Source: Escherichia coli
GTDB taxonomy: Bacteria; Pseudomonadota; Gammaproteobacteria; Enterobacterales; Enterobacteriaceae
DNA length: 64,000 nucleotides
Strand: one strand, 5' to 3'
NCBI RefSeq assembly: GCF_011045215.1
Contig: NZ_CP049201.1
The position numbers are program-made. The first letter of the stretch is position 1, and the number at the start of each line of letters is the position of its first letter. Shown piece by piece: positions 39,001-42,000 of the stretch.

Positions 39001-42000
39001 AAATGAGCAGGATTTACCGCTTTCGCTAACCGTAGTCGGCATTGCACCGGAAGAGCTATCAGCATGGGCTGGCGCAGATGCTGAACGCCTGACCGTTACG
39101 GCTCTGCCCGCCATTACCACTTATGGCGAACCGGAAGGGAACCTGCTAACAGGGCCGTGGCAGCCTCGCGTCAGCTACCGAAAACAGTGGGCGCGCTGGC
39201 GAGTGATGATTCTGCCGATATTGCTGATTCTGGTTGCGCTGGCAGTGGAACGGGGCGTGACGTTATGGAGCGTCAGCGAACAGGTGGCGCAAAGCCGCGA
39301 CCAGGCTGAGAAACAGTTCTTAACGTTGTTCCCGGAGCAGAAGCGGATTGTGAATTTACGCTCTCAGGTGACGATGGCGCTGAAAAAATATCGCCCACAG
39401 GCCGACGATACCCGGCTGCTCGCCGAGTTGTCAGCGATAGCCAGCACCCTGAAATCAGCGTCACTTTCCGACATCGAAATGTGTGGTTTCACCTTTGATC
39501 AAAAACGCCAGACGCTTCACCTCCAGTTGCGGGCAGCAAACTTTGCCAGTTTCGACAAACTGCGTAGTGCACTGGCAACCGATTATGTTGTGCAACAGGA
39601 CGCGTTACAGAAAGAAGGTGATGCGGTTTCCGGCGGCGTAATGTTGCGGAGGAAATAACATGTTACGCGATAAATTTATTCACTATTTTCAGCAATGGCG
39701 TGAACGCCAGTTAAGCCGTGGCGAACACTGGCTGGCACAACACCTGGCGGGGCGTTCTCCGCGTGAAAAGGGCATGTTACTGGCAGCGGTGGTGTTCCTG
39801 TTTAGCGTCGGATATTACGTCCTCATCTGGCAGCCGTTGAGCGAACGGATAGAACAACAGGAGACGATGTTGCAGCAGCTGGTGGCAATGAACACCCGAC
39901 TGAAGAACGCCGCGCCGGATATTATTGCAGCGCGAAAATCTGCCACAACAACGCCTGCGCAGGTATCGCGGGTCATCAGTGACAGTGCTTCCGCGCACTC
40001 GGTGGTCATCAGGCGGATAGCCGAGCGTGGGGAGAATATTCAGGTCTGGATAGAACCTGTGGTGTTTAATGACCTGCTGAAATGGTTAAACGCACTGGAT
40101 GAAAAATATGCGCTGCGGGTGACACAAATTGATGTCAGTGCTGCTGAGAAGCCTGGGATGGTGAATGTGCAGCGGCTGGAGTTTGGACGGGGGTAAAGTA
40201 TCAGGAGATTAATATCAATAACATTACTCTCGTTAACGTGGCGAGAGTAATTCCCCCAGACTTTATAAGCTAATTTTTTTCGTGAAGGTTATTGTCAGAT
40301 CCAAAAGCAAAAACCCGCCTTGTGGGCGGGTTCTTAAGAATTAGTGGTGCCCGGACTCGGAATGAAACTGGTTATATAACCAATTGTTTTGTATTGACTG
40401 TTTTGCCTTTGCTGTTTTCGGGGCCACCAATGAGGCCCCCATGTGCAATTCGAATTCTTTTGACGCTATAATCCCTCTTTTTTGTGCTTTGCTGTAATCA
40501 TTTTGTCTGGTTCGATGTGTTGATGCGCGGAGTCGTACTTAACGCATTTGTTAGCTGGTCAGAACACTCAATGCTGTTTGTCTGAAACAGGAGTAGGCTT
40601 CTTCCCAGTCAATCTGTGTATTACCAAATACCATCGGTTTAACAAACCGTTGAAAACGCAATTTGTGTACAGGATCATCCCGGAGTGCATCCAGCCCTTT
40701 CTTAAGTTCATCAACTGGTGAGCTACAAAATTGTGGGTACTGGTTACCATAGCGTTCAATATCCTGTTGAATACATATCTGAACAAAATTTTTCAATACA
40801 GGAACATTCACACCTTTTTCCCTGACAATGCAGTAGTTGTCGTAAATGTGACGTACCAGGAACTCATCATCCTGTTGTTCGGGATTACGAAGATGTGCTG
40901 CTGTTCTTCGCATCATGGAGATGAGCTTTTCAGCCTGAGTGGACAAAATGGTGGCACAGGGGAATGCTGTTACAGGTGTACCTTTACCCGTTAACTCCGT
41001 GACAAGTGAATAAATATCTCTGCTTTCCGGATGTTCCAGCAGGGTGCTTTCCATCAACTCCAGCTTAATAAATGGACGAAGACAGGGGACTTGCGCAAAT
41101 GTCTGGGGATAACGTACCGAGATTTCGTTATAACGATACTCATCACGTGTTATACGGGCGTTTTCATTATCCAGGCTGAAAATGTCAGAATTATTAATAA
41201 CATCCGTGATTATTTGCACGATTTTCTTGCGAATTTTTCTTCTCTTGTCTCTGCCATTTTGCATAAAGTTCTCTGTTGGCACGAGCTTTATATCAATATC
41301 TTCTGACATTCTGTTCAATGAGATACCTGCTTTTGACAATGCGGTACCTCCTGCAAACACGAGAGTATGTGTTTCTGGTTTTATTTCTTTTAGTAACTTT
41401 AAAAGATTAACCACAAAATAATCTTTTTCGACGATAGCGACAGATTCAATATCCAGTGCGTTGGCAACGTCAGGAAATAATGATGTTAATTCAGGCATTG
41501 ATTTTACTTTTCCCTACAACTAACACTCTTTTAAAGCGAGGAGGTGTTTTGAACTCCGGAGACACCGGAATCTGTGTGGACTGACCTTTATTGTAGCATT
41601 CTGTTGCGCCGATCAAGCTGTATCTGATATTCAAAAGATCCAGGGCTTCGGTGATTACAGCAGCAGAGCCACCAGGTGCTGCAGGCATTATTTTTCCTGT
41701 AATAACGTTGCGACGGGCTTTGGTGTAAACACCATAGCCCACCTTCATCAACTTACCTTCGTTTACCAGTGTACGAAGAGCTCTGCCAACCTGATCATAG
41801 CCAGCGATATCCCTGAAGTCATCCCGGGTGAACACATAACGCTTTGAACGGTTCAGTCGGGACTGAATACGGTCTTTTGTAGTCATGCTTCCTCCGAAAA
41901 ATATTAAGAATGATAGCAACAATACGGCATGTTTAATAGCGGGGCAGGGTCACATTACCTTTCGGTCAATACATTTGGATAGTATTTCTCAATAATATCA

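Follow-up and report, generated by a model that had tools for sequence, protein, structure and literature searches.

Two genes at the distal end of a CP4-like island integrated at pheV in Escherichia coli very probably form an intact toxin-antitoxin and abortive-infection module of the AbiE family, of the subtype with a short antitoxin (DUF6088, SanaTA-like). The pair was identified in a stretch of 64,000 nucleotides (the window), and its toxicity and its activity in phage defence are predicted by analogy with characterised relatives. The system is known already, has been annotated and in part characterised, and contains nothing new in kind, its products being listed in RefSeq as "nucleotidyl transferase AbiEii/AbiGii toxin family protein" and "DUF6088 family protein". 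Its only novelty, a mild one, is that the window has the rarer full-length allele of the toxin. One predicted abortive-infection/TA system is thereby added to the defence inventory of the strain and the distal end of the pheV island is marked; beyond correct annotation, the significance is little.

The features of the locus are collected in Table 1. The antitoxin gene comes first and the toxin gene second, both on the same strand. The first-pass annotation had placed a minus-strand pair with an 8-bp overlap at 40551-41886, and these coordinates are exact, the overlap being read in the sequence as ATGCCTGA. Such an arrangement is typical of translational coupling. The identical 8-bp overlap is present in the homologues from Acinetobacter and STEC, and overlaps of 4-20 bp were found in other homologous pairs. 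In the mechanical ORF list the antitoxin ORF is longer and starts at TTG 41922; the start is most likely ATG 41886, as indicated by the GGAGGA located five bases upstream, by the 131-aa RefSeq orthologues and by the PADLOC profile (model PDLC02229 begins at residue 13 of the longer ORF, which is the Met of ATG-41886).

Table 1. Features of the gene pair and the adjoining island boundary (positions in the window).
Feature	Position	Strand	Description
abiEi-like antitoxin gene	41491..41886	minus	131 aa, ATG start at 41886, 396 bp in RefSeq orthologues
abiEii toxin gene	40551..41498	minus	315 aa, ATG start, DUF1814 polymerase-beta-type nucleotidyltransferase, full-length allele
8-bp gene overlap ATGCCTGA	41491..41498	minus	toxin start codon within the end of the antitoxin gene
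19-nt copy of the pheV tRNA 3' end	40345..40363	minus	distal direct repeat (attR side), island boundary
Gap upstream of the antitoxin gene	41887..41954	minus	68 bp; Shine-Dalgarno GGAGGA, possible -10 TATCAT, imperfect inverted repeat
Imperfect inverted repeat	41902-41912 / 41928-41938		15-nt spacing; overlaps the possible -10 element
Intrinsic terminator hairpin	40308..40336	minus	12-bp stem, 6 G-C pairs, T-run; just past the pheV repeat

The toxin matches the PADLOC AbiEii model PDLC02297 from end to end (E 4.7e-125), 19 further AbiEii models and the Pfam family PF08843 (AbiEii/DUF1814; E 3.1e-30, residues 37-302). As the antitoxin is also matched by AbiEi profiles of PADLOC and Pfam (see below), the assignment of the pair to the AbiEi/AbiEii family at first pass is borne out by profile HMMs for both proteins. 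The NCBIfam search gave no match for the toxin, the antitoxin or the neighbouring DUF4942 protein. Motifs I and II of the polymerase-beta type (hG[G/S]x15DhD) are formed by F48-A-G50-G51, 15 residues and D67-I-D69, with R63 also present, and the GGTAL motif named in the first-pass annotation was located at residues 50-54. Motif III is K191-LISMM-R197-R198, where K191 is invariant and R197 and R198 are at least 90% conserved in an alignment of 61 homologues reaching down to 26% identity. The residues invariant in this alignment are K25, D26, F48, G50, G51, T52, R63, S65, E66, D67, D69, E190, K191, R216, H217 and D220. Lack of nucleotidyltransferase catalytic residues in the 315-aa protein had been named at first pass as grounds for abandoning the assignment; G50, G51, R63, S65, D67, D69, K191 and D220 are all in place.

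Motif IV of the toxin is R216-H217-I-Y-D220 (RHIYD) against the published +DxxD, the first Asp being replaced by His217 and the last one kept. This was counted against the AbiE reading; His217 is invariant across the clade of the toxin in the 61-sequence alignment, a clade-wide substitution, and the profile built from these sequences aligns the motif to RDLYD of MenT4. Ser65, two residues before the DxD motif, is likewise invariant and, by counting from that motif only, matches the phosphoacceptor position of AbiEii (T65) and SanaT (S65).

The AlphaFold model of the toxin, built on the same alignment, has a pLDDT of 95.3 and a pTM of 0.91. Its best match in the PDB was MenT4 6y56 (E 8.7e-8, TM 0.63/0.67), followed by MenT3/TglT (the MenAT entries after 6y56 being 6j7r, 6y5u and 8xhr) and then by H. 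pylori JHP933. MenT4 was also reached by sequence with the 61-sequence profile (E 0.0033), the segments GGT...SxDxD and RxxYD being aligned. The link between the toxin and the PDB structures needed either this profile or the fold search; direct phmmer of the toxin or the antitoxin against PDB sequences returned noise only. The toxin gene is under purifying selection, with a dN/dS of 0.18 against the full-length copy of E24377A.

The antitoxin matches the PADLOC AbiEi model PDLC02229 (131 positions) over its full length (E 1e-50), and the longer AbiEi models of the same collection over their first 110-125 positions only (E 1e-26 to 1e-12; for instance positions 1-123 of 202 and 3-110 of 214). 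In Pfam it was identified as DUF6088 (PF19570, E 3.2e-7) and by the AbiEi_4 winged-helix model (E 1.7e-4). It is 100% identical to P0121, which carries the NCBI name AbiEi family antitoxin domain protein, and its RefSeq orthologues are named DUF6088. Judged by these profile alignments, the protein is the short DUF6088 form of AbiEi, without the full COG5340 C-terminal domain of the ~200-aa AbiEi proteins. The antitoxin model (pLDDT 90.1) has a winged helix at the N-terminus and, behind it, a small alpha/beta region; its structural similarity to AbiEi 6y8q does not exceed that to winged-helix proteins in general. The most conserved stretch outside the winged helix is 67-MPAAPGGS-74, a candidate for a loop that reaches the active site of the toxin.

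The gap upstream of the antitoxin gene is a candidate promoter/operator. A consensus promoter scan found nothing in these 68 bp. The right arm of the inverted repeat is degraded in CFT073. A similar repeat with the identical 15-nt spacing was identified in the Aeromonas locus, one of five distant homologous loci, and a comparable repeat is absent from the other four, leaving no convincing conserved operator. Autoregulation by the winged helix of the antitoxin is plausible by analogy with related systems. Downstream of the toxin gene the hairpin at 40308-40336 is the sole strong terminator and likely the end of the transcript of the pair. No RNA family of Rfam was identified within or near the two genes.

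The pair forms the final operon of the pheV-integrated CP4-like island, at its distal (attR) end. The 19-nt repeat that bounds the island is perfect and unique in the window (chance expectation 0) and lies 187 bp from the stop codon of the toxin gene. It is precisely at this repeat that homology to islands located elsewhere on the chromosome sets in (query positions 136-146). Outside the island are the plus-strand type II secretion genes gspK, gspL and yghD, the last of them ending at 40196 and adjoining the repeat. The terminator hairpin sits where the pheV terminator would be left by insertion of the island. No tRNA gene was found anywhere in the 64,000-nt window, and the integrase end of the island therefore lies beyond 64000.

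Beyond the pair, the island has the customary CP4-like block, with genes for DUF4942, DUF957, DUF5983, CbtA, CbeA, DUF987, a JAB/RadC-like protein, an antirestriction protein and DUF932. The DUF4942 protein (Pfam E 9e-68) was considered as a third component of the system and rejected: although in E. coli it is always located ahead of the pair, it is absent beside the homologues of other genera. The same terminal block was identified in strain C5 at a different locus, on the cadC side, presumably the pheU site. The pair had been described at first pass as the first cargo of the island edge; its position at the boundary holds, whereas idiosyncratic cargo does not describe it, being a recurrent terminal part of the CP4-like backbone. 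More distant pairs were identified on plasmids of Acinetobacter, Aeromonas, Vibrio, Shewanella and Komagataeibacter, where the E. coli neighbours are absent and the surrounding genes unrelated, which argues that the two genes are an autonomous unit.

The pair was identified in ~650 of 5,426 complete E. coli genomes, and AbiEii in this species has been mapped to three integration hotspots (Hochhauser et al.). A protein identical to the antitoxin was found on 516 contigs, and the toxin is identical to that of strain C5. Full-length orthologues are distributed across Enterobacterales with 57-75% identity, and the length of the toxin in the window agrees with that of the orthologues in other genera. 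CFT073 and most of the other E. coli carriers have a 13-bp deletion in the toxin gene, corresponding to positions 40755-40767 of the window, by which the frame is shifted after ~residue 244. A 51-nt probe across the deletion junction matched 662 genomes, 600 of them at identities of at least 95% and 62 at 60-80% (undeleted type), and the undeleted 51-mer was found in only 65 genomes. The window thus carries the rarer full-length allele, and ~90% of the E. coli carriers have a frameshifted toxin. The protein database also contains many truncated variants, of 246 and 305 aa.

The orthologue in CFT073 is c3681-c3682, located on PAI-pheV and flanked by the same CbtA, DUF5983, DUF957 and DUF4942 genes in the same family of pheV islands, and its DNA is near-identical to the window over the aligned 1.46 kb. 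Two differences were found: the toxin of CFT073 is frameshifted by the 13-bp deletion (and marked so in RefSeq) whereas that of the window is full length, and the kps capsule cluster follows the pair in CFT073 whereas the pheV repeat and yghD follow directly in the window. A c3681-c3682 deletion mutant of CFT073 showed altered sensitivity to several BASEL phages with an interplay with the capsule; the phenotypes were modest and in both directions, and the function of the pair was left unresolved by the authors (PMC12488582). These are the only E. coli experiments on the orthologue and they came from the frameshifted allele, so full-length copies such as the one in the window are the right material for testing the subfamily.

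The proposed mechanism is drawn from the characterised members of the family. The toxin would hold an NTP and Mg2+ through G50/G51, D67 and D69, as deduced from S. agalactiae AbiEii, MenT1/3/4 and SanaTA, and would attach nucleotides to tRNA 3' termini, blocking aminoacylation and arresting translation. The MenT toxins transfer nucleotides to the 3' ends of tRNA, as does S. agalactiae AbiEii, the latter with a preference for pyrimidines; the target tRNAs and the preferred nucleotide vary even among the characterised members. The antitoxin would cover the active site of the toxin and lead to auto-phosphorylation of Ser65, which would abolish nucleotide binding and turn the toxin off, and its winged helix may also repress the operon. 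On phage infection the labile antitoxin (lost in a Lon-dependent manner in SanaTA) would fall in amount, and the free toxin would stop growth and abort the infection.

The same biochemistry could have been selected for another function. Rather than defending against phages, the pair could mainly secure the pheV island in the chromosome by addiction (post-segregational killing), where loss of the island would deprive the cell of the labile antitoxin and the remaining toxin would arrest it; we regard this as somewhat unlikely. The pair is the terminal operon beside attR at pheV in the window, in E24377A and in CFT073, and also at the cadC/pheU site of C5, a second toxin-antitoxin pair (CbtA/CbeA) is located on the same island, a maintenance role of AbiE on mobile elements was proposed by Dy et al. 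(PMC3985639), and the same hypothesis was raised for the capsule region by the authors of the CFT073 work (PMC12488582). However, the ~90% of E. coli carriers with a frameshifted toxin still keep the island end, so retention has no need of the full-length toxin, homologues are found beside restriction-modification genes on plasmids, and phage phenotypes have been reported for both SanaTA and the CFT073 pair. The deletion could also be read in a different way, which we consider unlikely: the window would carry the ancestral, fully active toxin, which a fixed 13-bp frameshift has disabled or re-purposed in ~90% of the carriers, including the studied capsule-linked ExPEC allele. The full-length allele at attR would then combine abortive infection with a lock on excision. 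The common allele would in turn have been domesticated from it, and the phage phenotypes reported for that allele would be due either to the antitoxin/regulator or to a truncated enzyme.

The frameshift in most E. coli copies, the abundance of the 246- and 305-aa variants and the lack of a clear promoter in the consensus scan of the 68-bp gap are what a silent or decaying remnant would show, intact in sequence and carried as a passenger of the island backbone. This is very unlikely for the copy in the window, as its toxin is full length and lacks none of the catalytic residues, the dN/dS against another full-length copy (E24377A) is low, the antitoxin recurs unchanged on the 516 contigs and full-length orthologues are conserved across Enterobacterales. 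It is less probable still, and extremely so, that no toxin-antitoxin system exists here, the 315-aa protein being a nucleotidyltransferase that performs some non-toxic task in the cell or in regulation, and its gene simply being under transcriptional control by the 131-aa protein. The generic winged helix as the only confident domain of the antitoxin and the departure of motif IV from the published pentad fit such a role, but in each characterised DUF1814 pair with this gene order (AbiE, MenAT, SanaTA, RlegTA and SdenTA) there is a toxicity that the upstream gene counteracts, the phosphoacceptor residue Ser65 does not vary, and the mobile-element context fits a toxin-antitoxin system. The preferred reading is that of an intact AbiE-family module. 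Besides motif IV, the points that weigh against it are the shortened antitoxin and its generic structural match, the failure of S. agalactiae AbiE against coliphages, the modest CFT073 phenotypes obtained with a frameshifted toxin, and the operator search, which yielded no convincing conserved site. The comparison with the characterised systems places the pair as follows.

Among the characterised homologues, the nearest to the pair is found on a plasmid of Shewanella sp. ANA-3, where a 136-aa DUF6088 gene overlaps a 313-aa AbiEii gene (131 and 315 aa in the window). The toxins are 42% identical over 315 aa (E 3e-89) and the antitoxins 45% identical over their full length (E 5e-39), and the ANA-3 toxin reads RMS65EDVD, with Ser65 as in the window. 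The ANA-3 pair is plasmid-borne and located beside a type I restriction-modification system, whereas the pair of the window is at an island end. We infer that it is SanaTA from the length of SanaA (136 aa) and from S65 of SanaT, both of which agree with the ANA-3 pair, rather than from locus tags. SanaTA is a validated toxin-antitoxin pair of Shewanella sp. ANA-3 (Sberro et al. 2013, after PMC3985639 and the preprint 10.64898/2026.01.19.700257). It protects E. coli against T7 without gene 4.5 through Lon-dependent loss of the antitoxin, Gp4.5 counters it, and SanaA is a short form without most of the AbiEi C-terminal domain; the phosphoacceptors in this and the classical system are SanaT S65 and AbiEii T65, and S. 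agalactiae AbiE did not protect against any of 32 coliphages (10.64898/2026.01.19.700257).

With AbiE of L. lactis pNP40 and S. agalactiae the pair shares the bicistronic organisation with overlapping genes, antitoxin first, the winged-helix antitoxin and the DUF1814 toxin with motifs I-III, R63, D67 and D69 having identical numbering in the toxin of the window. The S. agalactiae abiE genes overlap by 4 nt, and the motifs hG[G/S]x15DhD, the Lys/Arg motif and +DxxD of its AbiEii were defined and mutated by Dy et al. (PMC3985639); D192 of this toxin is essential. The differences are in the antitoxin, canonical AbiEi (~196 aa) possessing a COG5340 C-terminal domain, largely missing from the antitoxin of the window, in motif IV (+DxxD vs RHIYD), and in the distance between the toxins, which is too large for a direct sequence match (phmmer, PDB). 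The M. tuberculosis toxins MenT4 (Rv2826c), MenT3/TglT (Rv1045) and MenT1 share with the toxin of the window the nucleotidyltransferase core and the logic of a Ser/Thr phosphoacceptor, whereas their sequence identity to it is 12-16% and the MenA antitoxins are different or longer.

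The toxin gene of the AbiE-family pair occurs in two alleles. The common one lacks a 13-bp segment that is present in the window, and this loss frameshifts the toxin C-terminus. The deletion was identified in about 600 of the 662 complete E. coli genomes carrying the pair and, by sequence comparison, in E. coli CFT073. The full-length allele, as in the window, is present in only about 62-65 complete genomes. The allele used in the published phage experiments with CFT073 was the one encoding the frameshifted toxin.

The pair was also compared with that of E. coli E24377A. The antitoxin genes present no differences at the DNA level, whereas 40 differing sites were counted between the toxin genes (dS 0.125), together with 15 amino-acid changes. 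An identical antitoxin gene next to a diverged toxin gene suggests a recombination breakpoint within the latter.

Inverted repeats were identified 5' of the antitoxin gene in the window (arms of 11 nt, 82% complementarity) and in the Aeromonas veronii plasmid locus (14 nt, 93%), the arms being spaced by exactly 15 nt in both. No comparable repeat was identified upstream of the antitoxin gene in four other homologous loci searched.

Features of the window and of the compared loci
Feature	Sequence	Coordinates	Strand
13-bp segment, inside toxin gene	window	40755-40767	minus
AbiE-family pair	window	40551-41886	minus
AbiE-family pair	E24377A (L001)	20352-21687	
Inverted repeat	window	41902-41938	
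Inverted repeat	A. veronii plasmid (L006)	1006-1048	
CbtA and CbeA/YeeU	window	43579-44377	minus
376-aa ORF	window	50912-52042	plus
YfjI-family gene	window	55479-57083	
Second low-G+C stretch	window	57000-59000	
Inovirus Gp2-type gene	window	58673-59239	
C0719 sRNA match	window	21079-21300	minus
SanaTA-like homologue, hsdM, hsdS	ANA-3 plasmid (L004)	3950-6939	

A second toxin-antitoxin pair of the island, with CbtA as toxin and CbeA/YeeU as antitoxin, lies 1.7 kb deeper than the AbiE-family pair, in the usual CP4-like block of DUF4942, DUF957, DUF5983, DUF987, JAB/RadC-like, antirestriction and DUF932 genes. Two stretches of the island are low in G+C. The one of 34% contains a 376-aa ORF, hypothetical in the E24377A annotation and without match in Pfam and PADLOC searches, which may be unrecognised cargo; the genes beside it encode a GTPase, for which PADLOC gives a weak LeoBC-like match, and a WYL-domain regulator. 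The other (34-38%) is flanked by YfjI-family and inovirus Gp2-type genes. Far upstream of the AbiE-family pair, in the glc/sslE region, the C0719 sRNA family of Rfam (RF00117) is matched over its full length with 299 bits.

The SanaTA-like homologue carried by the plasmid of Shewanella sp. ANA-3 has the type I restriction-modification genes hsdM and hsdS directly behind it and forms a small defence cluster with them.
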